A stretch of DNA of 64,000 bases from a virus (taxonomy: Duplodnaviria > Heunggongvirae > Uroviricota > Caudoviricetes): the IMG/VR virus record IMGVR_UViG_3300046642_001000, positions 103,935 through 167,934 of that record. One strand, 5' to 3'. Both the position numbers and the translations under genes were made by a program. This document shows positions 5,208 through 44,028 of the stretch, one piece after another. Within the stretch, counting starts at the first letter, position 1, and every line of letters begins with the position of its first letter. The notes below the pieces were generated by a model. That model made no database searches. It saw only the letters and a program-made list of their open reading frames with translations, and was not told where the DNA came from.

Positions 5208-5603
5208 ATGGAGCCCGGATCCATGAACGCATCAGACCACGCGTTGTTTACGTCCGCCATGGCCATCGCCCTGGTCCTCGTCAAGGTCCTCGAGAAGTGC
5301 TTCGACTGGGTGACCAAGAGGGTCAGCGGCGGCAAGGACGGCGCGACAAAGGTGGAGCTCGGTGACGAGCCGTCGCGCATGATCCGGGAGACCTACGAGC
5401 AGTCCAAGCACACGGACGAGATCGTCAGCATCCGGGACAACGACGGCATCCCCATGGTCTACACACCCCGCTCCTCCCTGGAGAACCAGCTGAAGATGGC
5501 CGAGGCTCTCCGTGACATGAGCAAGGACAACGTCTCCAGCTCCGAAGAGCTCTCCAGGAAGATCGACGAGGTCCTCGCCGAAATCAAGAAGACGCGGGTC
5601 TAA
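5208..5603 (+). CDS. hypothetical protein with an N-terminal hydrophobic segment
   Basis: 131-aa ORF; TSAMAIALVLVKVL is a likely membrane anchor. Confidence 0.45.
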   Translation: MEPGSMNASDHALFTSAMAIALVLVKVLEKCFDWVTKRVSGGKDGATKVELGDEPSRMIRETYEQSKHTDEIVSIRDNDGIPMVYTPRSSLENQLKMAEALRDMSKDNVSSSEELSRKIDEVLAEIKKTRV

Positions 5604-5615
5604 GGAGGGTCTTCC

Positions 5616-12521: not shown

Positions 12522-12543
12522 CCAGCAGGGAGGGACTCATGGC

Positions 12544-13068
12544 ATGGAGTCTTGGATCGCTGCCCGGTGCCCCACCGACGAGGGGGACTACATTCTCAAG
12601 AACGCTTCTCGCACCCTCATCAGGTTCAGTGAAAGGTGCCAGCCTGACATCGCCCAGCTCATGTCTGAGATGGAGGAGCTGAACGTCCCGTTCTCCTACG
12701 CCGACAAGGTCAAGGAGATCTACTTCACCCTGATGCCCGACCACGGAGACCACCTCAACGGTCTCATCCGCATCAGCTTCACGAACCAGTCCCGAGAGAT
12801 CCTCGCCCGCATCCTCATCCACGAGCTGGCCCACAACATCGACGATGAAGAAGGTCTGTCTGAACGAGACGACATCATCACCGAGAAGAAGAAGAAGGCC
12901 CGCTACCTCCCCGACACCTACGCCCGGAAGAACGTCGACGAGTACATCGCGATCGGATTCGAGACGTACTACTGCGGCACTCCCGAACAGAAGCGCAAGA
13001 TGAAGCGGTGCAACCCGCGGCTCTTTGGCGCAATTAGATACCTTCACCGAAAGTACCGAGCGCGTTGA
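12544..13068 (+). CDS. putative zinc metallopeptidase (HExxH)
   Basis: ILIHELAHNID motif; an AGGGAGGG Shine-Dalgarno lies upstream. Confidence 0.5.
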   Translation: MESWIAARCPTDEGDYILKNASRTLIRFSERCQPDIAQLMSEMEELNVPFSYADKVKEIYFTLMPDHGDHLNGLIRISFTNQSREILARILIHELAHNIDDEEGLSERDDIITEKKKKARYLPDTYARKNVDEYIAIGFETYYCGTPEQKRKMKRCNPRLFGAIRYLHRKYRAR

Positions 13069-21474: not shown

Positions 21475-22452
21475 ATGGCACTCCCGGTACCAGAGAATCT
21501 GGAAGACGCTGCCCTCGTGACCCACAAGGGTTGCATGGACGGCGCGGGATGCGCGATCATGTTCATGTTGGCGGGCGGGAAGCGTGAGAACATCCACTAC
21601 GTCGCCGCCGGCATGGTCGAGAGGTTCGTCAAGAAGGATCCCGTCTTCCAGTCGAACAAGTTCCTGATCTTCGCGGACGTCGGGCTCAACACCCCGAAGT
21701 ACGCCGAGGTCCTCGAGCGTCGTGGCAACCTGGTCCTCATCGACCACCACGACACGTCGCTCCACCTGCTGGGCCGTCACTGGGCGGAGATCGAAGAGAA
21801 GAACCAGCGCTGCGGCACGATGATGCTCAGGGACTACCTGATCAGGATCGACGACGAGAACAAGGTCGGATTCGGGCGGCGGCTCAAGAGCACGAGCTAC
21901 CGGATTTTCGCCGAGTCCATCGACGACCACGACCGCTGGCTACGCCAGAAGCTCCCGTTCTCGGAGGACCTGGCGACCTTCATGGTCTTCGTCGGCCAGC
22001 AGGACTTCATCACCCGCTTCGCCGACCCGAAGGACCGGATCTGTCAGAACATCGCGCTCGGTCGTGGCAAGGTCTACTTCACGCAGTTCGAGGACGACAT
22101 CATCAACATCCTCGACAGGCGTCGAGATGAGGCGATCGAGGAGGCCATGAAGAAGGTCACGGTGAAGGAGATCAAGCTCTCCGACGGGACCCAGGTGATC
22201 GGAGGGTTCGTCGTCACCAACGAGCCCAACATCTCTCTCCTCCTCAACCGGCTCCTGGAAGTCTACCCCCAGGTGCAGATGGCTGTCAGCGTCTGCATCG
22301 AGAAGGGGGCGGTCGGGATCCGCTCACGTGCCGGCGAGCTGGACGTTGGCCGGATAGCCGGCCTACTTGGTGGTGGCGGCCACAAAGGCGCCGCGGGGCA
22401 CAGGCTTCCGCAGGATCTGAGCGAAGTAATCCTGGAGCACATCTATGGCTGA
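21475..22452 (+). CDS. DHH-family phosphoesterase
   Basis: LIDHHDTS (DHH motif) and GGGGHKGAAG (DHHA1 GGGH motif); the ORF-table start at 21463 lies inside the -10, so the second ATG at 21475 is used. Confidence 0.7.
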   Translation: MALPVPENLEDAALVTHKGCMDGAGCAIMFMLAGGKRENIHYVAAGMVERFVKKDPVFQSNKFLIFADVGLNTPKYAEVLERRGNLVLIDHHDTSLHLLGRHWAEIEEKNQRCGTMMLRDYLIRIDDENKVGFGRRLKSTSYRIFAESIDDHDRWLRQKLPFSEDLATFMVFVGQQDFITRFADPKDRICQNIALGRGKVYFTQFEDDIINILDRRRDEAIEEAMKKVTVKEIKLSDGTQVIGGFVVTNEPNISLLLNRLLEVYPQVQMAVSVCIEKGAVGIRSRAGELDVGRIAGLLGGGGHKGAAGHRLPQDLSEVILEHIYG

Positions 22453-23398
22453 TATCCTCGGAGTCTCGTTCGACGACATCTTCGTCAAGCTCCTTCGGAA
22501 GCTGAGCCGGAACCCCGACTTCGTCTGCGCCCCGCGTGGACAGAAGATCAAGGAAGACCTGGCCCTCACGCTCGTCCTGACGGACCCGCGGTCCCGCTTC
22601 ATCCACAACCCGGCCCGGAAGTCGAACTACGGGTTCGCGGCCGGGGAGTTCCTCTGGTACTGGCAGGGTCGCCGGGATCTGGAGATGATGCTCTACTACA
22701 ACCGGCGGATGAAGGACTTCTCGGACGACGGCCACACGCTGAACTCGGCGTACGGCTACCGGCTCCGGGCGGGGTCCGACCTGCTGGACATGGACAGCCA
22801 GTGGAACAACTGCATCGCCACCCTGTCGGGGGACTCGGACAGTCGACGGGCGGTCATGACCATCTTCGCCCCGATCGACGCGGACGTGGCGGTGCACCAG
22901 GGATCGAAGGACGTGCCCTGCACCCTCTCGCTCCAGTTCTTCATCCGTGACGGCGCGCTCCACCTGCACGTCCACATGCGGTCCAACGACGCCATCTGGG
23001 GCCTGACGAATGACCTCTTCAGCTTCACGCTCTTCCAGGAGTGCATGTTCCTGGACCTGAAGCGGCAGAACCCGAAGTTCGCGGACCTGCGCCTCGGCCA
23101 GTACTACCACACGGCCGGCTCGCTCCACCTGTACGAGCGCCACTTCGAGATGGCCGAAGAGGTCATCAAGCTCTACGACGAGGGCTTCAGGTGCTACGAC
23201 GCCATGCCGGCCCTCACCAGCCTCGAGTCTCTGGACAAGCTGGGCTACGACGAGGAAGAGCTTCGCAAGCGTTACATCGACCAGATCCAGCTCTCCAAGT
23301 ACGAGGGCGGGGAGCTGTGGCTGGCCGACGAGTTGAATGTACACCGGCAAAAGAGGGACGCCGAAGAGTCCCTCAAGGGAGACAAGAAAGCAGGCTGA
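22445..23398 (+). CDS. thymidylate synthase (ThyA)-family protein, candidate pyrimidine hydroxymethylase
   Basis: VPCTLSLQFFIRDGALHLHVHMRSNDAIWGLTNDLFSFTLFQ aligns with the ThyA PCH..FQFYV...RS.D...G.PFNI core, but carries Thr where ThyA has His; RRAVMTIF matches the ThyA RR motif. Confidence 0.7.
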   Translation: MADILGVSFDDIFVKLLRKLSRNPDFVCAPRGQKIKEDLALTLVLTDPRSRFIHNPARKSNYGFAAGEFLWYWQGRRDLEMMLYYNRRMKDFSDDGHTLNSAYGYRLRAGSDLLDMDSQWNNCIATLSGDSDSRRAVMTIFAPIDADVAVHQGSKDVPCTLSLQFFIRDGALHLHVHMRSNDAIWGLTNDLFSFTLFQECMFLDLKRQNPKFADLRLGQYYHTAGSLHLYERHFEMAEEVIKLYDEGFRCYDAMPALTSLESLDKLGYDEEELRKRYIDQIQLSKYEGGELWLADELNVHRQKRDAEESLKGDKKAG

Positions 23399-23400
23399 AC

Positions 23401-23880
23401 ATGGGACAGAACATCCGCGATCAGATCAAGGACCTCGAGATCGAGGTCGCCCCGAGCTACCCGCCCAAGGAGTACTCGAGGTTCGACGACTTCACCCGGG
23501 TCACCGACCTGCGACGCGGTCAGGATCTGCTCTACATCGGGTCGAACGCGTACTTCCCCTCGGTGAAGCGCAACGTTCGCACCATCACGACCGTCAAGAA
23601 CAAGCGGGAGCTCGAGAAGCTCCTGTCGGCGGAGCGGGTCTTCGACCGCATCTTCATCGCCCGGGAGAACGTCCTGGACGAGCGGTTGGTCACGGCGGCG
23701 GTGCAGCTCACCGCGGCCAACGGACTGGTGTGCTTCTTCTCGGAAGACGAGGGGCTGCGCGCCGGGTTCCACGAGATCGTCGAGAAGAACTACCCGACGG
23801 CCCAGTCGTGGAACTGCAAGTCCAACGTCGGTCCGCTCGTCATGACCGACGCCAAGGGCAATCCGTCCTACCAGGATTGA
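23401..23880 (+). CDS. hypothetical protein
   Basis: 159-aa ORF immediately after the ThyA-like gene. Confidence 0.5.
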   Translation: MGQNIRDQIKDLEIEVAPSYPPKEYSRFDDFTRVTDLRRGQDLLYIGSNAYFPSVKRNVRTITTVKNKRELEKLLSAERVFDRIFIARENVLDERLVTAAVQLTAANGLVCFFSEDEGLRAGFHEIVEKNYPTAQSWNCKSNVGPLVMTDAKGNPSYQD

Positions 23881-23929
23881 TTGTCCCTGTGACCTCCGCT
23901 CCCATATTTAATCAGCGGAGGATCACAGA

Positions 23930-24307
23930 ATGAGCGCACTTCCCCCCGACATGTTGTACGACGTCTTCAAGCGTCAAGAGGAGTTCATGGAACTCCTGCG
24001 CGTGAACGACAAGCTTCCCGAGTGGCCGGTGGACCTCACCACCAAGCCCGGCCAACGCCTCATCAAGGAGACGGCCTTCAACCTCTCCGACGAACTCCAC
24101 GAGGCGATGGCCACCCTCAAGAACAAGATGCACCGGCTGACCGACGATCGCACCCTCGACTTCGGTCACTACAAGGAAGAGCTCGGGGACGCCTTCGCGT
24201 TCTTCCTCGAGATCTGTCTCCTCAGCGGGATCGGGGCGGACGACCTCTACGAGGAGTACTGCCGCAAGAACAAGACCGTCAAGGAAAGACTGGCCAAGGG
24301 CTACTGA
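23930..24307 (+). CDS. MazG-like nucleoside triphosphate pyrophosphohydrolase
   Basis: EELGDAFAFFLEICLL EExGD motif in an all-alpha context. Confidence 0.6.
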   Translation: MSALPPDMLYDVFKRQEEFMELLRVNDKLPEWPVDLTTKPGQRLIKETAFNLSDELHEAMATLKNKMHRLTDDRTLDFGHYKEELGDAFAFFLEICLLSGIGADDLYEEYCRKNKTVKERLAKGY

Positions 24308-24525
24308 TGGGCCGGTTGCCGGGAGACATCTGCGCCAGGTGCCTGACCCGTCAGGGGACGGAGATCTGGACGGAGGGTACGATGGCCTACATCCACGGCG
24401 CGTACCAGATGTACTGCAAGGTCTGCGTCCTGACCTGCCAGATCCAGCACGCCAAGGAACGGGCGGCGGCGATCCCGGAGATGGAGCGGGAACTGGAAGA
24501 GCTGAAGAAGGTGGTGGATGGATAG
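24307..24525 (+). CDS. small Cys-rich protein
   Basis: 72-aa ORF with CxxC ... C...C; ATGA overlap. Confidence 0.4.
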   Translation: MGRLPGDICARCLTRQGTEIWTEGTMAYIHGAYQMYCKVCVLTCQIQHAKERAAAIPEMERELEELKKVVDG

Positions 24526-24784
24526 AGGGTACGAGTGCCACCTGACGTTCGACGCTGAACAGGCGAAGCTCGCCGAGGCGTCGTGTCCCTACGGCTGGAA
24601 GTTCAGCCGGATCGAGGGCGATCCCGTCCTCGGCCAACGACTCTACTGCTACTGGACGGCGTGGCACGGGTCGCAGGGAGTGATCGAAGACGAGATGCGC
24701 GGCGCCATCAGACTGGCCAATCGCAACGGTCTCCCCCTGGTCAGGGCGAAGATCGAACACATCATCTACGACCAGAGGTACTAA
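24518..24784 (+). CDS. hypothetical protein
   Basis: 88-aa ORF. Confidence 0.4.
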   Translation: MDRGYECHLTFDAEQAKLAEASCPYGWKFSRIEGDPVLGQRLYCYWTAWHGSQGVIEDEMRGAIRLANRNGLPLVRAKIEHIIYDQRY

Positions 24785-25338
24785 TGAGCGTAGTCATCAA
24801 TCTCTACGGTGGACCGGGCACCGGCAAGTCCACCTCGGCGGCCTACCTCTTCTACCTGCTGAAGTCGCAGGGGAAGAACGCCGAGCTCGTGCGGGAGTAC
24901 GTCAAGGACTGGGCGTGGGAGGGTCGCACGATCTCCACCTACGACCAGATCTACCTGCTCGGCAAGCAGGTCCGTCGGGAGAGCTTCCTCTACGGGAAGG
25001 TGGACATGATCGTCACCGACGCCCCGATCATGCTGGGCATCTACTACGCCAGCAAGTTCTCTCCCCTCTCGGTCAGTGAGGGAGTCCGGGCCATGACCCT
25101 CGCCTACTACCGGCAGGCGGCCGAGGACGGCCACCAGCACCACCACGTCTTCCTGGAGCGCACCAAGCCGTACAAGCAGGAGGGTCGGTTCCAGAACGAG
25201 GAGCAGGCCAAGCAGATCGACAACGGCGTCTATGGGATGCTGTCCGACCTGCGGATCCCGCTTGTCCGATGCGGGACGCAAAGAGAAGATCTAGACGAGC
25301 TACTTACCACTCTGAAGGTAAACAACCCCAAGGCTTAG
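24784..25338 (+). CDS. P-loop nucleotide or nucleoside kinase-like protein
   Basis: Walker A YGGPGTGKST near the N-terminus; 184 aa. Confidence 0.6.
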   Translation: MSVVINLYGGPGTGKSTSAAYLFYLLKSQGKNAELVREYVKDWAWEGRTISTYDQIYLLGKQVRRESFLYGKVDMIVTDAPIMLGIYYASKFSPLSVSEGVRAMTLAYYRQAAEDGHQHHHVFLERTKPYKQEGRFQNEEQAKQIDNGVYGMLSDLRIPLVRCGTQREDLDELLTTLKVNNPKA

Positions 25339-25354
25339 CCTGGAGACTCTCGCG

Positions 25355-26419
25355 ATGAAGCGCACGACAAAGCTCAGGATCTTCTACAAGTCCAAGTCCT
25401 CAGGACAGGGTCACAATCCCTACCACACGGGCGGACTGGCGGCGAACGCGCTGCACACCGTCGGCGTCCTCCGTCGGGAGGGTGTAGACGTAGACCTCGT
25501 CGCCGTGTCCAGCTTCGACGAGCTGGCGGCCTACCTTCGGGCCAACCCGGACATCACCCACGCCGTCATCGAGGCGGTCTGGGTCAAGGCGTCCGAGGTC
25601 GTCCTCCTGTCCCACGCCCACCCCCACCTCAAGATCGTGGTGCGGGCGCACTCCAAGATCGGGTTCCTCCAGGTCGAGCCCGAGGCCATCCCGGTCATCC
25701 GGGCCCTCATCGACCTCGGGGAAGAGTACCCGAACATCTCTTTCTCCAGCAACAACCAGGAGTTCTGCAACTCTCTCGGGGAAGTCTACGGCGACGTGCT
25801 CTACCTGCCGAACCTCTTCGACTGGGACGGGTCTCCCCCGAAGAAGCACAGCCACGATCGCATCCTCAGGCTGGCTTCTTTCGGTGCCACCCGGCTCCTG
25901 AAGCTCCACTCTTCCGCGGCACTGGCGGCCCTTCAGGTCGCCGTCCGCCTCGACCGGCAGCTGGAGTTCTACGTCAATACCGACAATACCCCGGGAGGTC
26001 ACAGCGTCCGGAACACGATGCGGAACCTCTTCGCTGGTCTCCCCTGGGCGAAGCTGATCGAGGTGAGCTGGCAGGACGCGGCCACCTTCCGGGAGACCAT
26101 CGCTGAGATGGACCTGGTCTTCCAGCTGTCCGCCACCGAGACCTTCTGCCTGGTGGCCGCGGACGCCGTGTCCAGCGGGGTGCCAGTGATCGTCGGAGAG
26201 GCCGTCAGCTGGGTGCCGGAAAGGTACCAGTCCAACATCGACGACACCTCGGAGGCGGCAACCGAGGCCATCCGCGCACTGGAGAGCAGCCACAAGACGG
26301 TCAAGGTGCAGCAGGAAGCCCTGAACGACTTCGTGGAGTCTTCGACTCGGATCTGGCGCACGTTCCTCGGGATGCCGAGCGGACGGGAAAGCCGTAAGAA
26401 CCTCTGGTGGATTTTCTAA
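25355..26419 (+). CDS. GT-B fold glycosyltransferase (GT1/GT4-like)
   Basis: C-terminal SATETFCLVAADAVSSGVPVIVGE resembles the GT4 E..G..EAMA.G.PVI donor-binding block. Confidence 0.55.
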   Translation: MKRTTKLRIFYKSKSSGQGHNPYHTGGLAANALHTVGVLRREGVDVDLVAVSSFDELAAYLRANPDITHAVIEAVWVKASEVVLLSHAHPHLKIVVRAHSKIGFLQVEPEAIPVIRALIDLGEEYPNISFSSNNQEFCNSLGEVYGDVLYLPNLFDWDGSPPKKHSHDRILRLASFGATRLLKLHSSAALAALQVAVRLDRQLEFYVNTDNTPGGHSVRNTMRNLFAGLPWAKLIEVSWQDAATFRETIAEMDLVFQLSATETFCLVAADAVSSGVPVIVGEAVSWVPERYQSNIDDTSEAATEAIRALESSHKTVKVQQEALNDFVESSTRIWRTFLGMPSGRESRKNLWWIF

Positions 26420-29900: not shown

Positions 29901-30484
29901 ACGGGGAGCTGAAGATCGTCGACGAGAAGGTGTCAGGCGGTCCGAAGCTGGCCCGAGTCCAGTCGGTCAAGGGCCGTCCACGCTGGGACGAGCTCTACTC
30001 CCGGATCATGACGGATGAGAAGATCGAAGACTTCAAGCTCCACGAGAAGGTCTTCCTCGAGAACGAGCTCATGGAGTTCAGCCTCGCGGGTACTCCCTTC
30101 GAGATCCTCGACCGGAAGAAGAAGATCACCGCCATGTTCGATGGGGTGGTCTCCACGATGGAGGAGTTCCTCGGCGGCGAGGAAGAGATGACGATGCTCC
30201 CGGTCGTGGTGAAGGAGTGGAAGGAGAAGCCCCAGCGCAACGGGCAGATGTTCGCCTTCATCAAGTTCGCCACGGAAGACGGGGAGACGTTCGACGTCCC
30301 GGCCTTCGCGAACATGTGGAAGTGGATCTCACCCGTCATCCGCAAAGGCTCGGTCTACATCGCCACCTTCAACAGAGACATCGACGATGACCCCGAGCGC
30401 CTGAAGCTCGGCCGGCCGGGGTGGGCGCAGAGCCAGCATTCGACGATGCAGGCCTTCATCAATGTGGACGACATAAGTCTCTAG
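26957..30484 (+). CDS. dnaE: DNA polymerase III alpha subunit (DnaE-type)
   Basis: N-terminal PHP domain HNHSHFSVFDG ... ALTDHG; 1175 aa. Confidence 0.85.
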   Translation: MLKEFASFHNHSHFSVFDGLSLPEELLKAAKEKGLKSIALTDHGVTHGHADWYLMGKKMGVKTVFGVEAYVIHDLKEWKALKGEIDSQKRKGAKKEDNEYTADGDVVDPKALRRKGHLVILASNREGLSNLYQLTFKAHKFGFYQKPRMDKVMLQEHAKGLIATSACMGGVISKRLWDLKEGSCTWEDVKNEVLDYDRIFGRGRFYLELQFNEMDKEQNYINTSLVQLHKETGVPLTVTTDSHYATQAEWEPRELLHLMGWSKKTVADLPEQKLDSQVKQLFVKSPEEMWLTYEKLAGHCIDPKTAMEAFQGTLLIDSLIEDFEPDTHQRLPTLPFANPYKEMGMRAIAGLKKLGLAENEIYKDRLLFELGVIKQKGISNYFLVCQQIIEEAKKYMLVGPGRGSAAGSLVCWCLGITDLDPIKRDLLFERFLDIDRAELPDIDTDFEDPKAAKRMLQKMFGDDNVASLSSYGTFQIKGLLKDLGRVYGVDHNLINKLNRQIDKELKVLYVDQDKSTLVVKLDDIIRVSPSFNTFVEENPDLGSKIKTLYGRIRHVTRHAAGVIIGDNLPAETSCFVAKAKGKKTKDNEDGEDDTLAEEGEMVVQCSFTEGIVNKNLSAMGFVKMDILGLANLRVIRCALEHISSRTGKSFDELYEGLRSHNMDLDDIKVMKNIFWDGNFGAIFQFSNPGIRALAKRVKPDSFVDVSAICSLYRPGPLKGGYDKVYVTAKHGEIASLGHPVLDEILGSTKGCLVFQEQLMKVCSVFGKMTGKEVNRVRKVLLKKDKSKTEEFLKQENDVLYASFHKGCMEHGFPEDKTLKLWEDIKAFGGYAFNKSHSDAYSLTTMQTAHLATYYPLEFYTAALTKAQANAIQTLVADIQKTGIKILPVDINKSRAANIIEGLCIRLALGRVLGVGPSVIEKIVANQPYTSFQDFLDRSKANKTAVEALIQVGAFGSLPGCGNIKRLWEAYRKWTDNVLVTLDGELKIVDEKVSGGPKLARVQSVKGRPRWDELYSRIMTDEKIEDFKLHEKVFLENELMEFSLAGTPFEILDRKKKITAMFDGVVSTMEEFLGGEEEMTMLPVVVKEWKEKPQRNGQMFAFIKFATEDGETFDVPAFANMWKWISPVIRKGSVYIATFNRDIDDDPERLKLGRPGWAQSQHSTMQAFINVDDISL

Positions 30485-30793: not shown

Positions 30794-31096
30794 ATGACCA
30801 AGGACAACAACGGCCCGTACAGCATCGGGTCGACGTTCTGGCCTGGGCTCTCGAAGCTCGTCGAGGAGTGCGGCGAGGTCGTCCAGGTGGTGGGCAAGTT
30901 GCTTGGCACCGGGGGAGAGACCAAGCACTGGAACGTCCCCGACCTCAAACGCGCCCTAGAGGAGGAGATCGCCGACGTGATGGCGGCCTGCTCTTTCGTG
31001 ATCGAGGAGTGCCAGCTGGACGCGGGGTTCGTGTACACCCGCTACCAGATGAAGAAGGAACGCTTCAAAGAATGGCACAACGGCAGCAAACTGTGA
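30794..31096 (+). CDS. MazG-like NTP pyrophosphohydrolase, second paralogue
   Basis: LVEECGEVVQ and LEEEIADVMA motifs. Confidence 0.6.
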   Translation: MTKDNNGPYSIGSTFWPGLSKLVEECGEVVQVVGKLLGTGGETKHWNVPDLKRALEEEIADVMAACSFVIEECQLDAGFVYTRYQMKKERFKEWHNGSKL

Positions 31097-31121: not shown

Positions 31122-32951
31122 ATGACCATCGCAACCGTGCTCGCGTTCTGGTGGGTCGTACCCATCGTCCTGACCCTCGTGCTCTACAAGTTCGTGCTCC
31201 GGCTCTGCTTCGGGATGGTCTCCGTCTCGAAGGACGAGGTCGGCATCGTCGACAAGAAGTTCGCCCTCTTCGGCGCGAAGACCCTGCCCGACGGTGCCGT
31301 CATCGCCCTGAAGGGTGAGGCCGGCTTCCAGGCGGACACGCTGGCCCCTGGCGTCCACTTCGGCCTCTGGCCGTGGCAGTACGCGGTCACCCTCCAGAAG
31401 TTCGTGAACATCCCGGAGAACCACGTCGGGCTCATCGAGTCGCGAGGTGGCCAGGTTCCGGTGAACGGTCGAGTCCTCGCGCGAAAGGTCGAGTGTGACT
31501 CGTTCCAGAACGCCCGCGCCTTCCTCGAGGCAGGCGGAGAACGTGGTCCCCAGATCGCCATCATCACCCCCGGCACCTACCGCATCAACACGGTCCTCTT
31601 CTCCCTGAGGATCGTGGAGGCTCTCGAGATCCCCGACAACATGGTCGGCGTGGTCACCACCAAGGACGGCAAGCCCCTCTCGACCGGTGACATCGCCGGC
31701 GGAGAGTTCCCCGGCCACAACATGTACCAGGACGGCGAGGCCTTCATCACCGCCGGTGGCTACAAGGGCCTGCAGGAGCAGGTCATCCTGGCCGGCCTGT
31801 ACTACATCAACCCGCTCTTCGCCACCGTGGAAGTGAAGCCGATGACCGAGGTGCCCATCGCCAATGCTGGCGTGGTCATCGCCTACGTCGGTGGGGTCGG
31901 TGTGGACGTCACGGGTGAGTCCTTCAAGCACGGCAACCTCGTGGTCCGTGGGCAGAAGGGTGTGTGGGTCGAGCCGCTGGACCCGGGCAAGTACCCGATC
32001 AACCCGTACACCCACAAGGTCGAGGTCGTGCCGACGGCCAACGTCGTCCTCAACTGGGCGACCGGCAAGACCGAGGCGCACAAGCTGGACGCCAACCTGT
32101 CCACCATCACGGTGCGTAGCTCCGACGGCTTCAAGTTCAATCTGGACGTGAGCCAGATCATCCACATCCCCCGGACCGACGCCCCCAAGGTCATCGCCCG
32201 CTTTGGCAGCGTGGCCAACCTGGTCACCCAGGTCCTGGAGCCGACCATCGGCAACTACTTCAGGAACGCGGCCCAGGGCTCGGACGCCATCGCCTTCCTC
32301 AAGGAGCGCGAGAAGCGCCAGCAGGACGCCCGGGCTTCCATCAACAACGCCCTGAAGGAGTACAACGTCGGAGCGGTGGACACCCTCATCGGTGACATCA
32401 CCCCGCCGGACGCCCTCATGGAGACCCTGACGAAGCGGAAGATCGCCGAGCAGGAGAAGATCACGTTCGACACCCAGCGCATGGCCGAGGAGACCCGCAA
32501 GGAGTTCGAGCAGGCCAAGGCGATGGCGGCCACCCAGGCCAACGTCGTCGAGTCCCAGCGGAAGGTCCAGATCGCCGAGTTCGACGCCCAGTCGGCGGTC
32601 AAGAAGGCGGAAGGCGACGCCCAGTCCAAGACCATCAACGCCAAGGCGGATGCCGAGGTGCTCGTGGCCATCGGTGACGCCGAGGGCAAGAAGATCACGG
32701 CGGTCGGCACGGCCGAGGCCGAGGTCATCCAGAAGAAGACCGACGCGAACGGCAAGGCCAACTACGCCCTCATCGAGGTGGCACGCGCCCTCTCCTCGTC
32801 CGGTCACGCCCTGGTCCCGGAGATCATGGCCGGTGGCGGTCTCGACGGCAACAACCAGGGCGGCCTGGTGAACGTCCTCCTGGCCGGCCTCATCAAGGAC
32901 GGCCTCTCGAAGAACGGCAGCAACGGCGGCGGCACTCCCGAGTCCCACTAA
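31122..32951 (+). CDS. flotillin/SPFH (band 7) family membrane protein
   Basis: N-terminal transmembrane segment, an SPFH-like domain, and a long Ala/Glu-rich coiled coil (EAEVIQKKTDANGKANYALIEVARAL). Confidence 0.65.
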   Translation: MTIATVLAFWWVVPIVLTLVLYKFVLRLCFGMVSVSKDEVGIVDKKFALFGAKTLPDGAVIALKGEAGFQADTLAPGVHFGLWPWQYAVTLQKFVNIPENHVGLIESRGGQVPVNGRVLARKVECDSFQNARAFLEAGGERGPQIAIITPGTYRINTVLFSLRIVEALEIPDNMVGVVTTKDGKPLSTGDIAGGEFPGHNMYQDGEAFITAGGYKGLQEQVILAGLYYINPLFATVEVKPMTEVPIANAGVVIAYVGGVGVDVTGESFKHGNLVVRGQKGVWVEPLDPGKYPINPYTHKVEVVPTANVVLNWATGKTEAHKLDANLSTITVRSSDGFKFNLDVSQIIHIPRTDAPKVIARFGSVANLVTQVLEPTIGNYFRNAAQGSDAIAFLKEREKRQQDARASINNALKEYNVGAVDTLIGDITPPDALMETLTKRKIAEQEKITFDTQRMAEETRKEFEQAKAMAATQANVVESQRKVQIAEFDAQSAVKKAEGDAQSKTINAKADAEVLVAIGDAEGKKITAVGTAEAEVIQKKTDANGKANYALIEVARALSSSGHALVPEIMAGGGLDGNNQGGLVNVLLAGLIKDGLSKNGSNGGGTPESH

Positions 32952-33187: not shown

Positions 33188-34321
33188 ATGTCCATGCGCG
33201 TCGCTCTCGTCATTCCGACCATCCGGGAGAACTCCTTCAAGGACTTCATCTCCCGGTGGGAAGCCCTCGGTCTCTATCAGGCAGTCGACCTGATCGTGAT
33301 GGAGGACAACCCGAAGAAGACCTTCGACGTTTCCAGCGTCGACAAGCGGTGGGGAGCGGTCCACCTCTGCTGGGAAGACATCGAGGCTGACCTCGGGAAA
33401 GACAGCTGGATCATCCCCCGGCGTTCGGACACGGTCAGGAGCTACGCGTACTACTACGCCTGGAAGATGGGTTACGATTTCATCCTCACCCTCGACGACG
33501 ACTGCTACCCGCCGTCGAGGGATGTGGATGGACTTCAGTACGAGGACGGGGAGTCGTTCGTCGCCTCCCACCTCCAGTACCTGGAGAAGCGGACCCGGTG
33601 GTTCAACACCCTGAACAAGGTGAAGCCACGTGGCATCCCGTTCTACAACCTCGGTCGCAACGACAAGGTGATCGTCAATCACGGGCTCTGGACCAACGTG
33701 CTGGACTACGACGCCCCGTTCCAGCTGGCCAACCCGATCCCCGAGGAGTTCAGCTTCGACAACCGGATCGTGCCCAACGGCTCGTACTTCCCGATGTGCG
33801 GCATGAACGTCATGTGGCGCCGGGACGCGACGGTCCTCATGTACCACCTGCTCATGGGCCAGGTCCTCCACTCCAGAGAGAACAGCAAGATCTACACCCC
33901 GCCCCTGGGGACTCTCCTCACGGTCCCGGACTCTCCGGGCCTGGCGCTGGAGAAGTTGGCCTTCGACAGGTTCGGCGACATCTGGTGCGGCATCCTGATG
34001 AAGAAGATCGCGGACGTGAAGCGTCTTCAGGTCTCGACAGGCATGCCCTACATCCGGCACGAACGGGCCAGCAACCCGTTCGCCAACCTGAAGAAGGAAG
34101 CGAACGGCATCGAGGTCAACGAGAAGTTCTGGGAGCACGTCGACAAGGCTCAGATCTCTCCGGGGCTCGACCTGGATGGCTGCTATGGCGAGATGGGGCA
34201 ACACATCGGAGCCTATTCGGAGTACCCAGAACACGCCCAGTACTTCAGGCGGCTGGGGGAAGCGATGGTCATCTGGTCCAAGCTCTTCCGGCGCCACGGC
34301 GGCGGAACTTCGGGAGTCTGA
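33188..34321 (+). CDS. GT75-like glycosyltransferase (reversibly glycosylated polypeptide / UDP-arabinopyranose mutase family)
   Basis: IPTIR, TLDDDCYP (DxD), HGLWTNVLDYDAPFQL, PMCGMN, and STGMPYIRHERASNPFANLKKE aligning with plant RGP blocks. Confidence 0.7.
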   Translation: MSMRVALVIPTIRENSFKDFISRWEALGLYQAVDLIVMEDNPKKTFDVSSVDKRWGAVHLCWEDIEADLGKDSWIIPRRSDTVRSYAYYYAWKMGYDFILTLDDDCYPPSRDVDGLQYEDGESFVASHLQYLEKRTRWFNTLNKVKPRGIPFYNLGRNDKVIVNHGLWTNVLDYDAPFQLANPIPEEFSFDNRIVPNGSYFPMCGMNVMWRRDATVLMYHLLMGQVLHSRENSKIYTPPLGTLLTVPDSPGLALEKLAFDRFGDIWCGILMKKIADVKRLQVSTGMPYIRHERASNPFANLKKEANGIEVNEKFWEHVDKAQISPGLDLDGCYGEMGQHIGAYSEYPEHAQYFRRLGEAMVIWSKLFRRHGGGTSGV

Positions 34322-34322
34322 C

Positions 34323-34841
34323 ATGAAGCAAGACATCATCCTCTTCGAAGGACCGGACGGCGTGGGGAAGACCACCATCGCCAAGGCTCTCTCCAAAGAG
34401 ATCGGCGTCCCGTACTTCAAGATGAACTCGGAGCACGACAACTGGCGCAAGGGGAAGTTCAAGGAGGCGCTGGAGTTCGACCAGACGTACCTCACCCAAT
34501 TCCTCAAGCAGACCGGGTGCTCGGTCATCATCGACCGCGCCTGGCCGAGCGAGTGGGTATACTCCATGGTCTTCAAGAGGGAGACGAACTTCTCGGTCCT
34601 CTCTCAGCTGGACCGGGAGTGGAGTGAGCTCGGCGCCCGCATCATCATCCCGTGGCGTGAAGACTACACGAAGAACCGGGAGGACGAGCTGGTCCCGAAG
34701 AACAAGCTCAAAGAGATCCACGACGCCTACTTCGACTTCATGGAGTGGACGAACTGCGACGTCGTTCCAGTGAACGTGGACTACTACAAGAACGACACCA
34801 AGTCGGAGCTGGACTACATCATCCCGCTCCTCATGAGATAG
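34323..34841 (+). CDS. thymidylate/nucleotide-monophosphate kinase-like protein
   Basis: P-loop FEGPDGVGKTT typical of dTMP kinases. Confidence 0.65.
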   Translation: MKQDIILFEGPDGVGKTTIAKALSKEIGVPYFKMNSEHDNWRKGKFKEALEFDQTYLTQFLKQTGCSVIIDRAWPSEWVYSMVFKRETNFSVLSQLDREWSELGARIIIPWREDYTKNREDELVPKNKLKEIHDAYFDFMEWTNCDVVPVNVDYYKNDTKSELDYIIPLLMR

Positions 34842-34846
34842 GAGAC

Positions 34847-35326
34847 ATGATGAAGCGTCTAAGACTGGTCATCGTCGAGTCACCGTTCGCGGCCCGCAAG
34901 CCGGACGGCAGCTGGGATCCCGAGGGGGTGGAGGAGAACCTCCGCTACCTGCGGGCTGCCATGCACGACTGCCTGATCAAGGGAGAAGCGCCGTACGCCA
35001 GCCACGCCCTCTACACCCAGCCCGGCGTCCTCGACGACCAGGTCCCCGCGGAGCGGACCCTCGGCATCGAGGCAGGGTTCGCCTGGAACACCCAGGCCTC
35101 GGCTTCGATCTTCTTCGTCGACAAGGGCATCTCGTCAGGCATGAAGCTCGGGATCAAGAACGCCGTCGTCGACGGGCGGCCCATCGAGGTTCGCTCTCTC
35201 GCGGACTTCCGCACGGAAAGGTCGGAGGAAAATGAGGAAGAACTCAAGCGGCTCATCGGTGAGGCAGCGCTTGCGTACGCTCTTGAACGACGCAAAGCAG
35301 AAGAGGAGTGGCAAAATGACTTCTAG
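34847..35326 (+). CDS. hypothetical protein
   Basis: 159-aa ORF. Confidence 0.5.
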   Translation: MMKRLRLVIVESPFAARKPDGSWDPEGVEENLRYLRAAMHDCLIKGEAPYASHALYTQPGVLDDQVPAERTLGIEAGFAWNTQASASIFFVDKGISSGMKLGIKNAVVDGRPIEVRSLADFRTERSEENEEELKRLIGEAALAYALERRKAEEEWQNDF

Positions 35327-35528
35327 GGATTTCTGTTTCTGGCTGCAGGGGTTCTTCGAGATCCAGGATCCCAAGACCCTGGACGAGAAGCAGCTCGAGG
35401 CCGTGAAGAAGCATCTCTCTCTCGTGTTCATCCACGAGATCGACCCGTCCATGGGCGGCAAGAAGGAGCAGGACAAGCTCAACCAGGCGCACCACGGTCC
35501 TGGCAAAGACCTTCTCATGCGCTGCTAA
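35316..35528 (+). CDS. small hypothetical protein
   Basis: 70-aa ORF; GAGGAG Shine-Dalgarno 7 nt upstream. Confidence 0.4.
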   Translation: MTSRDFCFWLQGFFEIQDPKTLDEKQLEAVKKHLSLVFIHEIDPSMGGKKEQDKLNQAHHGPGKDLLMRC

Positions 35529-35540
35529 CTGTGGTATAAT
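35508..35540 (+). promoter_or_regulatory. promoter with a GACCTTCTC upstream element at the fixed 27-nt spacing to GTGGTATAAT
   Basis: same architecture as the GTCCTT-type promoters further downstream; the ATG follows 6 nt after the hexamer. Confidence 0.4.
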
Positions 35541-35546
35541 AGGTCT

Positions 35547-36758
35547 ATGCGAATCGGATATTCCTACTGGGGCTTCCTCGGAGATCACAAACGCGAGGGC
35601 GGTGAGGCCGTCTCCACACCGGACGGGAACGCCGCATACTCCTGGAGCATCATCTGGGAGCTTCTGCAACGGGACTACACGGTCTACACGATGCAGAAGG
35701 ATCGCGACCGCGAGGGCTGGATGAAGTATGGCCGGGACCTCTTCGCCTCGTTCAGTGAGGAGAAGCGGACCGAGGCCTACCTCGGCATCGAGCGGACCAA
35801 CGGGGTGGACCTCCCCGAGCTGGACGTCCTGCTGGTCGAGTGGAGGTTCCCGATCTTCGGACGGAACTGCTGCTCGTGGGAGGGCGCGCCCTGCTTCCCC
35901 AGCGACGCGAAGAGCGGCCAGCCCATGATGGCCTCGGGGTACGCCGACAAGAAGATCGAGCTCCAGCCCGACCTCTTCAGGCAGTACGAGATCCTGCGGT
36001 ACTATAAGGAGCGGGGCACCAAGCTCATCTTCTGGGACCTGGACCACAAGCTCCTGGGCCACGACGAGATCACCTGGTCTCCAGACGCGGTCTTCGAGAC
36101 TTCGAAGAAGCCGCTGCACCTGGTCACCAGGCGGACCAGCGTGGAGTTCCCCACCATCGTGGCGGACCTCATGCAGCACCCGACCCTCGAGGCGGACGAG
36201 AACCGGAAGCTGGTCTACATCGGCAGCCGGTACGAGCGGGACGACGTCATCACCAAGTGGCTGAAGCCCGTCTCGGACTCTTTCCCGGGGCAGGTGGAGT
36301 TCTGGGGCAACTGGATGCGGACGGTCGAAGAGTGCAAGAAGCTCTGGCCGAACGTGAGCTACAACGACCGGATCACCATGGCGGACTTCCGCCGGGTCTA
36401 CGGGTCGGCGGTGGCCTGTCCGATCCTGGCGAAGCAGAGCTACCTCGAGACAGGGTTCATCACCCCGCGTCCGTGGGAGGCGCTCATGTTCGGTACGATC
36501 CCGGTGGGGCTCGGCTCTCACCTCGGCATCTCTTCCTACGTCCAGCCGGGCCTCATCGCCGGCGACGGGTGGGACATGATCGAGGTGGTGAAGACCCTGA
36601 CCGGACTTCCCCTCAAGGAGCGGGACCGCATCCGCAGAGAGAACGTCGAACAGATCGAGCACATGGACGCCCGGTACTTCGTCGACAGAATCGAGGACGT
36701 GGCCAATGATGTGGTGGACATGGGTGAAGACCTACTTATCGAGAAAGAAGGAGCCTGA
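35547..36758 (+). CDS. putative glycosyltransferase
   Basis: 403 aa; position and size fit a nucleic-acid sugar transferase; no decisive motif, so the fold assignment is tentative. Confidence 0.4.
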   Translation: MRIGYSYWGFLGDHKREGGEAVSTPDGNAAYSWSIIWELLQRDYTVYTMQKDRDREGWMKYGRDLFASFSEEKRTEAYLGIERTNGVDLPELDVLLVEWRFPIFGRNCCSWEGAPCFPSDAKSGQPMMASGYADKKIELQPDLFRQYEILRYYKERGTKLIFWDLDHKLLGHDEITWSPDAVFETSKKPLHLVTRRTSVEFPTIVADLMQHPTLEADENRKLVYIGSRYERDDVITKWLKPVSDSFPGQVEFWGNWMRTVEECKKLWPNVSYNDRITMADFRRVYGSAVACPILAKQSYLETGFITPRPWEALMFGTIPVGLGSHLGISSYVQPGLIAGDGWDMIEVVKTLTGLPLKERDRIRRENVEQIEHMDARYFVDRIEDVANDVVDMGEDLLIEKEGA

Positions 36759-36759
36759 C

Positions 36760-37116
36760 ATGGCACGTAAGAAAGAATCCGTTCGCTTCCTCGTCACCGA
36801 CGGTGTGAAGCCGAACCGCGTAGGACCCGCCCGCGTCTTCAATCTGAAGGCGCCCATCGTCCTGAACATCCCTGCGGGGGCGTCGGTGAGGGTCCCTCTC
36901 GGGGTAAGCTGCAACTACCCCCTCCAGGTCTTCGGGACCCGTGGGTGTCTGCAGAGGGGTCTGACGGTGCTGGAGCCGAACGGTCCGACGTTGGACGCCG
37001 ACACGGACCTGGTCCTCATCGTGAAGAACACGGGCAAGGAGACCCAGCTCATCGAGCAGAGCGACGTCCTGGCCCGCGCCTTCGTGCTGGACAACAACGA
37101 CCTCGAGCTGGAGTGA
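36760..37116 (+). CDS. dUTPase/dCTP-deaminase-fold protein (tentative)
   Basis: PTLDADTDLVLIVKNTG resembles the dUTPase G.IDADYRGE..V.L.N motif; short at 118 aa. Confidence 0.4.
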   Translation: MARKKESVRFLVTDGVKPNRVGPARVFNLKAPIVLNIPAGASVRVPLGVSCNYPLQVFGTRGCLQRGLTVLEPNGPTLDADTDLVLIVKNTGKETQLIEQSDVLARAFVLDNNDLELE

Positions 37117-37280
37117 TGCCGACCTGGGCAGTCGTCGTGCTGCTGATCGTCTGGCTACTGGCGATCAACTACAGACAGTGGAGACCCTGATGGAGTTCTT
37201 CGTGATCATGGCCCTCATCGCCCTGCCCATCGCCGGTACCTTCTACGTTCGTAGACGGACCCGGAGACAGGTTCGCTTCT

Positions 37281-37700
37281 ATGAGTCCAACTGATCGGCC
37301 CACCTGGGACGACGTCTGGATGGGGCTGGCTCTCACGCTGTCCCAGCGGTCCACCTGCTCCCGGCTTCAGGTCGGCTGCGTGATCGTCACCGAGGACAAC
37401 CAGCAGGTCCTCGGGGTCGGCTACAACGGAGGTCCCAAGGGGATCTCCAACGACTGCCTCAGCCTGGAACCCGGCCTCTGTGGCCATCTCCACGCCGAGG
37501 TGAACGCCCTCATCAAGGCCAACTACACCAGCGTCGCGAAGAAGAAGATGTACGTGACCACCCAGCCCTGCTACCAGTGCGCCGTGGCCATCGTCAACGC
37601 GAACATCTCCGAGGTCGTCTACCAGAAGCCGTACCGGCTGACGGACGGTCTGGAACTGCTTGCCACAGCAGGTATCAAAATCCGTAAGCTGGACGGGTAA
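37281..37700 (+). CDS. dCMP deaminase
   Basis: zinc ligands HAEVNAL ... PCYQCA of the cytidine/dCMP deaminase family. Confidence 0.8.
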   Translation: MSPTDRPTWDDVWMGLALTLSQRSTCSRLQVGCVIVTEDNQQVLGVGYNGGPKGISNDCLSLEPGLCGHLHAEVNALIKANYTSVAKKKMYVTTQPCYQCAVAIVNANISEVVYQKPYRLTDGLELLATAGIKIRKLDG

Positions 37701-43161: not shown

Positions 43162-44028
43162 ATGGATCGCGTCGATGACATCTACGGCGACGGTATCGGA
43201 TACGTGCACCTTCTGGACAGCATGGGGGACGAGTTCACTCCCGCCGAGGACGCCCGCACCAGCACCAACAAGGGGCGCCTCGGTCCGGAGAAGGACGCGG
43301 CTCTCCAGGAACGTCTGACCAAGGACGCTCACACCTCCCCGTTCGAGGGGGTGGTGGTCAAGGTGGAGATCATGACCCCGCTCTTCGTCCTCAGGGAGCT
43401 GGACCGCCACCGCACGGTATCGAAGGTCGCCGACGAAGATGTGGAGATCATCACCCCTGAGGAGTCTGGCCGGAAGTGGTTCGCTCGCAACGAGATGAGC
43501 GGCCGCTACGTCCAAATGCCGAACCTCTACTACCACCCGGTCCAGGTTCGCGCCCAGAGCAAGACGAACATGCAGGGCGGCGGACCGATCCAACTGGTGG
43601 ACGACGCGGTGGCTCGGGAGTTCAAGGAGTCTGGCCAGGTTCTCTGTATGATGGCCCGGGACCTCTATGACCGGGCAGTCGCTGCCGGAGTCGAGAAGGG
43701 GATCGCCCGCATCTACAACACCCAGAACCAGTACACCAAGATCAGACTCACAGGAAGCCTCAAGAACTTCTGTGACTTCCTGTACCTCCGGCTACCAGGG
43801 GTGGTGCTGTGGGAGTGTCGGAGAGTCGCCGAGGCGCTCGAGGAGCTGCTGAAGGAAGCTTTCCCCTCTCCCATGGAGCAGTGGCGCAGGAACATCTACG
43901 AAACTGTCCGACTGACCAAGGCCGATCGAGCGGCGCTGGTCGAGATGATGGACGCCTTGGGAGAGTTCGGAGACGAGTCACTGCTTCCGGCAGAGTGGCA
44001 GTCGGCCCTAGCAAAGGTGAGGGGATAG
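43162..44028 (+). CDS. thyX: flavin-dependent thymidylate synthase (ThyX)
   Basis: ThyX signature LDRHRTVSKVADEDVE ... SGRY (RHR-x7-8-S ... SxRY). Confidence 0.75.
   Translation: MDRVDDIYGDGIGYVHLLDSMGDEFTPAEDARTSTNKGRLGPEKDAALQERLTKDAHTSPFEGVVVKVEIMTPLFVLRELDRHRTVSKVADEDVEIITPEESGRKWFARNEMSGRYVQMPNLYYHPVQVRAQSKTNMQGGGPIQLVDDAVAREFKESGQVLCMMARDLYDRAVAAGVEKGIARIYNTQNQYTKIRLTGSLKNFCDFLYLRLPGVVLWECRRVAEALEELLKEAFPSPMEQWRRNIYETVRLTKADRAALVEMMDALGEFGDESLLPAEWQSALAKVRG

Follow-up and report, generated by a model that had tools for sequence, protein, structure and literature searches.

What do the genes between positions 33188 and 37700 of this phage DNA produce? The interval lies in the window, which is the whole 64,000-nucleotide stretch analysed from the IMG/VR record IMGVR_UViG_3300046642_001000. 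The window has 62% G+C, carries every plausible gene on the + strand, and derives from an uncultured phage of roughly 205 kb. The interval fits exactly from the first codon of a glycosyltransferase family 75 (GT75) gene to the stop codon of a dCMP deaminase gene. It is filled by nine open reading frames (ORFs), all on the + strand, in a tight run with starts and stops that overlap or nearly abut, including two TGATG overlaps at 37114-37118 and 37188-37192; the contiguous run given in the preliminary description thus stands. A second block (22445..26419) is located ~10 kb upstream. Both blocks had been taken together as a modified-nucleotide pathway rather than a plain dNTP supply, and this proposal is borne out by a hydroxymethylase-type ThyA homolog in the upstream block, by synteny, and by the GT-B fold of a 403-residue protein in the downstream block. 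Judged by homology and gene context, the two blocks probably (at a probability of about 0.62) direct the replacement of cytosine by 5-hydroxymethylcytosine (hmC) bearing a furanose sugar.

The predicted pathway would proceed as follows. MazG-like pyrophosphatases would convert dCTP to dCMP, which the ThyA homolog (22445-23398) would hydroxymethylate. The resulting hydroxymethyl-dCMP (hm-dCMP) would be phosphorylated by a Tmk/YorR-like kinase (34323-34841), and the host nucleoside diphosphate (NDP) kinase and the phage Pol III alpha would bring hydroxymethyl-deoxycytidine into DNA. The 403-residue GT-B enzyme (35547-36758) would place a sugar on the hydroxymethyl group in DNA, and the GT75 protein (33188-34321) would make the NDP-furanose donor from the corresponding NDP-pyranose. 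A GT4-type enzyme (25355-26419) may add a second sugar in this sub-clade. The dCMP deaminase and ThyX would sustain dTTP synthesis, and the remaining products of the block (a dUTPase-fold protein, a DUF7768 protein, a 70-residue ORF and two tiny peptides) would be accessory or are left without an assigned role.

The ThyA homolog (317 residues) is predicted to be a dCMP 5-hydroxymethylase and to catalyze the first committed step. Its nearest solved relatives in the Protein Data Bank (PDB) are the CMP hydroxymethylase MilA (E = 1.1e-41) and then the T4 dCMP hydroxymethylase (E = 6.8e-15), with true thymidylate synthases ranking behind. The motif 'KDVPC...MRSNDAIWGLTND' (also 'KDVPCTL...'), together with 'SRRAV', carries the signature residues, for which published criteria were used (PMC13326640; PMC5175136). 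In E. coli ThyA numbering, the catalytic Cys146 is present. An Asp at position 177 indicates cytosine rather than uracil as the substrate base, and an Asp at position 143, an acidic residue associated with water access, is characteristic of hydroxymethylating rather than methylating enzymes. Ser167 and Arg126' form the deoxyribose signature, for which the MilA counterparts are Ala176 and Lys133; a MilA-like activity on the ribonucleotide CMP was rejected on account of this Ser/Arg pair. The homolog also retains Asp169, reading RSND where RB69 gp48 reads RSQN. Because the D169N substitution is a published diagnostic of 5-hydroxy-dCMP synthases (PMC13326640), the retained Asp169 leads to a prediction of hm-dCMP and not 5-hydroxy-dCMP as the product. 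All 12 transferase-linked ThyA homologs examined share the Asp177/Asp169 pattern, and most also have Asp143. The window additionally encodes the flavin-dependent thymidylate synthase ThyX (43162..44028; Pfam Thy1, 6.1e-23), which is also found in loci L001, L030 and L056 of the set described below. ThyX covers ordinary dTMP synthesis, and the ThyA homolog is therefore free for cytosine modification.

The comparison of synteny suggested in the preliminary description gave a positive result. Loci with relatives of the 403-residue protein were gathered from IMG/VR (13), JGI/ENA metagenomes (62) and Logan/JGI assemblies, and deduplication left 63 unique loci (numbered with the prefix L) that span 21%-72% G+C and reach down to 25% protein identity. 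Across these loci the transferase travels with the kinase, the hydroxymethylase, a MazG-like pyrophosphatase and the deaminase; wherever the contig is long enough, a cytosine-type ThyA homolog, MazG and the deaminase are close by. The order GT75, kinase, transferase, deaminase is kept to ~40% protein identity, and the small ORFs that separate kinase from transferase vary. Relatives with large genomes have a window-like order: RNR, DHH, ThyA homolog, MazG, further genes, Pol III alpha, GT75, kinase, transferase, dUTPase-like gene and deaminase. Low-GC phages hold parts of both window blocks in one contiguous cassette, as in L073 (dUTPase-GLF-kinase-transferase-ThyA homolog-deaminase) and L070 (GLF-kinase-transferase-ThyA homolog-deaminase), which suggests that the two window blocks form one functional module. 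A shorter arrangement of kinase, transferase, ThyA homolog and Pol III alpha was observed in L014, L015 and L077, with a UDG gene after the transferase in L015. The clustering of the block is not a matter of chance. Its core is the pair of kinase and GT-B transferase, and GT75 is dispensable in some lineages.

The 403-residue protein, described before as a putative glycosyltransferase, is now supported in that class by structure prediction. It has no match in Pfam, PHROG or NCBIfam, and its 329 homologs are all metagenomic. The AlphaFold (AF2) model, built from an alignment of 43 sequences, has a mean confidence score (pLDDT) of 90.3 and adopts the two-Rossmann GT-B fold. In a fold search of the PDB with this model, the best match is T4 DNA beta-glucosyltransferase (beta-GT; 1bgu, E = 1.6e-8, template modelling (TM) scores 0.55/0.66), and other GT-B enzymes come next in rank. 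For the GT-B enzymes published as acting on phage DNA, matches to T4 beta-GT fall in the same E-value range, and these enzymes are often associated with a thymidylate synthase (bioRxiv 10.1101/2023.12.21.572611). Sequence comparison does not place the protein in the T4 beta-GT family: its family profile matched no glycosyltransferase in the PDB and yielded two marginal glutathione synthetase matches (E ~0.9). A fold search of BFVD returned generic viral GT-B matches only. Because the transferase is linked to hydroxymethylase, kinase and deaminase genes, sugar transfer to hmC in DNA is the activity predicted for this modelled enzyme.

The GT75 protein (377 residues) belongs securely to its family (Pfam RGP, 2.5e-35, 122.7 bits against a cutoff of 23.8), as the preliminary description had it, although a function as nucleotide-sugar mutase is more likely than one as transferase. 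In the PDB it matches, by sequence, 8cid, a UDP-arabinopyranose mutase (1.3e-14), and 7xpr, the GDP-sugar mutase MtdL (5e-11). Enzymes of this family are Mn2+-dependent NDP-pyranose/furanose mutases, and mutation of D87, D109, R159, D195, R257 or D260 abolishes the mutase activity of MtdL (PMC9937993). In the alignment, D81 and R84 of the phage protein correspond to D87 and R90 of MtdL, and the DDD metal-binding motif D103-D105 corresponds to D109-D111. R148 is equivalent to R159 (R158 in OsUAM1), the autoglycosylated or nucleophilic Arg. The catalytic Asp residues are D173 (MtdL D195) and D264 (MtdL D260), R261 aligns with R257, and H291 aligns with the Mn-coordinating H287. These aligned residues are invariant or ≥90% conserved among 37 phage homologs; R148, D264, D173, the DDD motif and H291 are invariant, and D81 is conserved at ≥90%.

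The identity of the gene that substitutes for GT75 also points to a mutase. Near the transferase, 24 unique loci carry GT75 and 11 carry the UDP-galactopyranose mutase GLF, and the two never share a locus. Among 26 adequately flanked loci, 18 have GT75, 4 have GLF and 4 have neither. GLF takes the place of GT75 near the transferase in low-GC relatives (Pfam 6e-30 and 3e-68 for the two tested). GLF is an FAD-dependent pure mutase without transferase activity. Because this non-orthologous enzyme replaces GT75, GT75 itself would serve to provide the GT-B enzyme with a furanose nucleotide sugar. We predict that it converts an NDP-sugar from the pyranose to the furanose form in a Mn2+-dependent reaction and that the DNA glycosyltransferase uses the product as its donor. 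Since plant GT75 enzymes convert UDP-galactopyranose to UDP-galactofuranose (PMC9937993), UDP-galactofuranose is the simplest guess for a common donor, with UDP-arabinofuranose as the alternative.

The kinase (172 residues) is in keeping with its earlier description as a dTMP-kinase-like P-loop protein. PHROG 761, thymidylate kinase, matches it at 3.9e-13 over residues 1-99, and the YorR structure 2axp covers residues 5-96 (E = 0.006); the Pfam Thymidylate_kin and dNK matches are below the cutoffs and are confined to the P-loop. It is 30% identical to the 'nucleotide kinase' RB69 gp45 (E = 4.6e-7). Sufficient upstream sequence was available for 37 loci, and in 28 of them the kinase gene ends ≤1.3 kb upstream of the transferase. 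Homologs also adjoin pyrimidine hydroxymethylases in phages that lack the transferase, namely MW202510.1, which has a row of NTP pyrophosphatase, kinase, hydroxymethylase, deaminase and polymerase genes, and Pelagibacter phage HTVC119P, in which gp15 is paired with gp16. No other conserved dNMP kinase was found in the syntenic regions of the relatives. Because of this absence and of the hydroxymethylase neighbors in transferase-free phages, the protein is best read as a predicted hm-dCMP kinase.

Several observations weigh against the furanosyl-hmC pathway. The T4 beta-GT match of the 403-residue model is only marginally above those of many non-DNA GT-B enzymes, with 13% identity and TM scores of ~0.55-0.66. 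Sequence comparison detected no similarity between the transferase and RB69 gp46:47, and a tblastn search of ~50,000 deposited phage genomes with the protein gave no match. The gp1-type kinase of RB69 and DLP3 has been shown to phosphorylate modified dCMP, and both phages also carry a homolog of the Tmk-like kinase (PMC13326640), which makes the role assigned to the window kinase tentative. Neither mutase is present within 6 kb of the transferase in 4 of the 26 well-flanked loci. GT75 enzymes also autoglycosylate an arginine, so a transferase role for the window protein is conceivable (PMC9937993). At the MtdL D87 position the phage GT75 protein has the Asp of GDP-sugar mutases, where plant UDP-sugar enzymes have Ser, and at the MtdL Ser228 position it carries the plant-type Gly; this mixture of a bacterial-type and a plant-type residue does not allow commitment to a particular nucleotide or sugar. 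Finally, the single match of the GT75 protein in a tblastn search of the deposited phage collection is in an unrelated context, in a 595-kb megaphage (L019, LR756511.1 193984-218910; GT75 at 11995-12930 of the locus, 37% identity). No hydroxymethylase, kinase or 403-residue transferase is located within 12 kb of this gene. Its neighbors have no link to nucleotide metabolism and the locus was uninformative for the pathway, but it shows that GT75 occurs in at least one further setting among viruses. The megaphage gene stands between two ORFs with N-terminal G/CxRSGTT motifs and a sulfotransferase-like look.

An explanation that dispenses with DNA modification is that the nucleotide genes only raise the dNTP supply and that GT75, the GT-B enzyme and GT4 glycosylate other targets, such as virion proteins or host envelope glycans. 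Phage glycosyltransferases for non-DNA targets exist, lipid and small-molecule transferases fit the GT-B model almost as well as T4 beta-GT does, and the megaphage LR756511 keeps its GT75 away from nucleotide genes. However, the ThyA homolog has a cytosine-hydroxymethylase signature and would be redundant for dTMP given ThyX. The transferase moreover stays beside the kinase and the hydroxymethylase in lineages of 21%-66% G+C despite shuffled gene order, and in the loci compared it has no consistent virion or envelope gene as a neighbor. This explanation is considered unlikely.

The GT75 protein could alternatively be a GT-A glycosyltransferase that acts on hmC-DNA or on protein, with the GT-B enzyme adding a further sugar and no furanose being involved. 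Members of GT75 do have a GT-A fold and genuine arginine autoglycosylation (PMC9937993), and GT-A DNA glycosyltransferases are common in phage hypermodification clusters (bioRxiv 10.1101/2023.12.21.572611). Against this, GT75 alternates with the pure mutase GLF and never occurs together with it, and the full set of mutase residues defined by mutagenesis is invariant in the GT75 homologs (D81 at the level given above). The conserved core consists of the kinase and the GT-B enzyme, and some lineages do without GT75. A GT-A transferase in this position appears improbable.

Placing the Tmk-like kinase after replication, where it would act on DNA or on a sugar in the manner of the 5-hydroxymethyldeoxyuridine DNA kinases to make an activated intermediate, would explain its very tight coupling to the transferase. 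RB69 and DLP3 have a separate gp1-type dNMP kinase for the nucleotide step, and in the window a second kinase-like gene lies directly 5' of the GT4 gene. Nevertheless, kinase homologs stand beside hydroxymethylases in transferase-free phages, the syntenic regions of the relatives contain no further conserved candidate for a dNMP kinase, and the fold family is that of mononucleotide kinases, which makes a post-replication role very doubtful. A pathway that proceeds via 5-hydroxycytosine and joins the sugar to C5 by an ether bond, as RB69, DLP3 and RL38J1 do, would share with those phages the trio of Tmk-like kinase, transferase and MilA-like ThyA homolog, a kinase homologous to RB69 gp45 and, as in RL38J1, a phage-encoded pyranose/furanose mutase (PMC13326640), but it was rejected for the absence of D169N, since the window protein and the 12 linked homologs read R-S-x-D where RB69 gp48 reads R-S-Q-N, and it is highly improbable.

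The predicted furanosyl-hmC pathway resembles two described systems to different extents. T4 makes glucosyl-hmC with gp56 dCTPase, gp42 dCMP hydroxymethylase, gp1 dNMP kinase, alpha- and beta-glucosyltransferases and Cd deaminase. The window phage shares this pathway logic and, as predicted from gene content, the base chemistry: a pyrophosphatase, a nucleotide kinase and a deaminase are present, the ThyA homolog has the hydroxymethylase signature, and the best structural match of the GT-B transferase is T4 beta-GT. All parts except the ThyA homolog and the deaminase are, however, non-orthologous. The kinase resembles Tmk/YorR instead of gp1, no similarity in sequence connects the transferase with GT63 or GT72, and the replicase is Pol III alpha. 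T4 draws directly on host UDP-glucose, whereas the window phage brings a predicted nucleotide-sugar mutase of its own.

Among described systems, RB69, DLP3 and Rhizobium phage RL38J1 come closest in architecture, with a kinase, a GT-B transferase and a MilA-like ThyA homolog in one cluster (Lee et al., NAR 2026, PMC13326640). A kinase homologous to RB69 gp45 and, on the present prediction, a furanose donor supplied by the phage are common to these systems and the window; D-arabinofuranose is used in RB69 and DLP3, and RL38J1 encodes a UDP-galactopyranose mutase (PMC13326640). In contrast, those phages glycosylate 5-hydroxycytosine, while the window ThyA homolog lacks D169N and hmC is predicted. 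The window mutase is GT75 and not GLF, the arabinose-5-phosphate isomerase/kinase/uridylyltransferase route is absent, and the transferase family is unrelated by sequence. With the known GT75 mutases (plant RGP/UAM, bacterial MtdL and Hyg20; PMC9937993), the window enzyme shares the RGP domain, the DDD motif, the nucleophilic Arg and the other mutase residues. It differs from them in being viral and in lying inside a predicted DNA-modification cluster, a role for GT75 not reported in literature searches; those on GT75 or RGP in phage DNA modification returned nothing. The metavirome clusters associated with thymidylate synthase likewise pair a T4-beta-GT-like GT-B enzyme with a thymidylate synthase homolog on metagenomic phage contigs, but mutases, furanoses and GT75 are not mentioned in that study (bioRxiv 10.1101/2023.12.21.572611).

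Two of the predictions appear novel, namely a furanosyl-hmC base and the recruitment of GT75 as a mutase for which GLF can stand in. A more specific proposal can be made tentatively, at slightly under even odds: a group of uncultured, abundant environmental phages (~195-207 kb) and their smaller low-GC relatives would carry a new base, hmC O-linked to galactofuranose or arabinofuranose, with the donor made by GT75 or, interchangeably, by GLF, and with a second sugar or an O-methyl group possible in some lineages. Sugar-modified cytosines are a main means by which phages escape restriction enzymes and CRISPR, and such bases are in turn attacked by DNA-glycosylase defences and by type IV restriction. 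Should the prediction be correct, furanosyl-hmC would be a new sugar chemistry among natural DNA bases, for which two unrelated mutase families have been recruited to one job. It would also give glycosyltransferase family 75 its first viral and first DNA-related role, beyond plant cell walls and antibiotic biosynthesis. The combination of Tmk-like kinase, 403-residue transferase, cytosine-type ThyA homolog and GT75 or GLF would then serve as a gene signature for finding such phages in metagenomes. Where sequencing or cloning protocols respond to bulky adducts on cytosine, DNA of this clade may be recovered too rarely or mis-called.

The dCMP deaminase (37281..37700, 139 residues) was correctly named from the start: Pfam dCMP_cyt_deam_1 matches at 1.8e-22 (79.6 bits against a cutoff of 25) and PHROG 174, dCMP deaminase, at 5e-47, and the zinc motifs HAE and PCxxC are present in the translation as 'HLHAE' and 'PCYQC'. 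It is co-located with the transferase in most relatives and is predicted to supply dUMP for the ThyX route to dTMP. Two pyrophosphatase genes lie outside the main block. The first encodes a 125-residue all-alpha NTP pyrophosphatase of the dUTPase_2/MazG-like type (23930..24307; Pfam dUTPase_2, 1e-4; PHROG nucleotide pyrophosphohydrolase, 4.9e-13). A MazG-like pyrophosphatase adjoins the hydroxymethylase in L001, L004-L007, L009, L013 and L039, and the window protein is predicted to be a dCTPase, a functional analogue of T4 gp56. The second is a 100-residue MazG-domain protein (30794..31096; Pfam MazG, 2.5e-5; PHROG 4856 NTP pyrophosphohydrolase, 3.3e-11). A PDB sequence search for MazG was empty. 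In L006, a MazG-like ORF of 109 residues (8076-8405) precedes GT75, and a 350-residue ORF resembling IMP dehydrogenase/GMP reductase (11088-12140; judged from the N-terminal sequence only) is located 3' of the transferase.

The preliminary description counted the genes that it listed as likely base-modification parts, but DUF7768, the 70-residue ORF and the tiny peptides are lineage-specific extras and not core components. Between the kinase and the transferase it placed a single hypothetical gene, where there are in fact two ORFs. The first (34847..35326, 159 residues) encodes a nucleoside 2-deoxyribosyltransferase-like DUF7768 protein (Pfam 1.8e-23; PHROG 355 nucleoside 2-deoxyribosyltransferase, 4.1e-14). 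It occupies this slot only among the closest relatives, L017, L022 and L023, whereas other lineages have unrelated small ORFs or a UDG-family gene there; DUF7768 is a lineage-specific accessory gene. A PDB sequence search with it was empty. One may speculate that it acts as a MilB-like N-glycosidase on hm-(d)CMP, an idea to be read beside its confinement to the closest relatives and the lack of similarity to any solved structure. The second ORF (35316..35528, 70 residues) encodes a conserved small phage protein (PHROG 28500, 2.8e-8) that is present in L017, L018 and L022. Its segment 35328-35443 is 77% identical over 116 nucleotides to a hypothetical gene of the Caulobacter jumbo phages CcrSC and CcrBL9. 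These 116 nucleotides are the sole match of the block DNA against 50,697 phage records, in which no cultured relative was found.

The 118-residue protein (36760..37116) does have the dUTPase fold attributed to it, but it is probably not a working, canonical dUTPase. Its AF2 model (pLDDT 88.1) has trimeric dUTPases as all of its top 50 Foldseek matches in the PDB (best E = 3.3e-7, TM up to 0.77), and its family profile matched only dUTPases in the PDB (best E = 0.024). No Pfam dUTPase match was obtained, the chain stops short of the C-terminal, P-loop-like motif V, and the acidic positions of motif III vary among the homologs, so that the five motifs of a dUTPase are not all present in this degenerate protein. 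Low-GC relatives have a true Pfam dUTPase in the cassette, located in the same slot in L010 and upstream of the mutase or the kinase in L073, L076 and L079. The two tiny ORFs at 37116..37190 (24 residues, TGATG-coupled) and 37190..37294 (34 residues, with a basic tail after the hydrophobic segment) were identified by inspecting the sequence itself. Both encode a single hydrophobic stretch and have a GGAG just ahead of the start codon (6 nucleotides upstream in the case of the 37190-37294 ORF), in keeping with the transmembrane peptides proposed before, although as genes they are plausible but unproven. A 72%-identical homolog of the longer ORF was found only in the closest relative, L017; for the shorter one, no homolog beyond an identical contig was found among the loci compared.

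In the upstream block, the GT4-type gene (25355..26419, 354 residues) matches Pfam GT4-conflict (2.5e-6, 27.2 bits against a cutoff of 26) and Glycos_transf_1. A homolog is present in L018, and proteins of ~30% identity occur in the Ralstonia jumbo phages phiRSL1 and RsoM2USA. RB69, DLP3 and RL38J1 have several transferases, and by analogy GT4 is a candidate for a second DNA sugar transferase in this sub-clade only. The second P-loop kinase (24784..25338, 184 residues; Pfam AAA_28, 2.1e-9; PHROG 2107 thymidylate kinase, 4.4e-10) lies directly 5' of the GT4 gene, an arrangement that mirrors the kinase-transferase pair of the main block; in L018, GT4 directly follows MazG. This kinase is absent from the syntenic region of all other loci examined.

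Further genes were observed within the cassettes of relatives. A 243-residue S-adenosylmethionine-dependent methyltransferase is inserted between GT75 and the kinase in four lineages (L005 8504-9187; L007 8353-9081; L037 30-722; L048 223-864). It matches Methyltransf_24 (3.9e-18) and, weakly, the rhamnosyl O-methyltransferase CmcI and the macrocin O-methyltransferase TylF, which hints that the DNA-linked sugar may be O-methylated in these lineages. A UDG-superfamily gene (Pfam UDG, up to 1.6e-19) adjoins the 403-residue transferase gene in several distant lineages (L012 9289-9990; L013 9252-10004; L015 11070-11663; L062 133-543; L063 1424-2041), and where it lies 5' of the transferase it occupies the DUF7768 slot. 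L030 has a 4.8-kb insertion between the kinase and the transferase (5448-9820) that encodes an RNA ligase, NADAR and a 707-residue HATPase_c_3 protein; its gene content is unrelated to the pathway, of which it was not taken as a part, and it looks like an accessory island.

Promoter and terminator scans of the region gave counts not above the shuffled expectation. The best sigma-70-like match (35512-35540; TTCTCA, a 17-nucleotide spacer with an extended TG, and TATAAT; 10/12) lies just 5' of the transferase gene and is part of that total. A 609-residue SPFH/Band-7 membrane protein is encoded at 31122-32951, between Pol III alpha and the GT75 block; the gene is found in the close relatives L017 and L018 and is absent from L001 and L004-L009. 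The largest gene of the window is a single ORF of 2301 residues (5616-12521). A search with Pol III alpha returned distant matches only (<34% identity), from which the phage could not be placed. In the window, Pol III alpha is encoded without interruption (26957-30484). In several relatives 0.8-2 kb of inserted sequence splits the gene, a pattern suggestive of inteins or homing endonucleases: it lies in two pieces in L008 (1645-4125 and 5655-6638), L056 (1814-4324 and 5591-6607) and L011 (3205-5544 and 7613-8029), and in three pieces in L043 (1473-7102).

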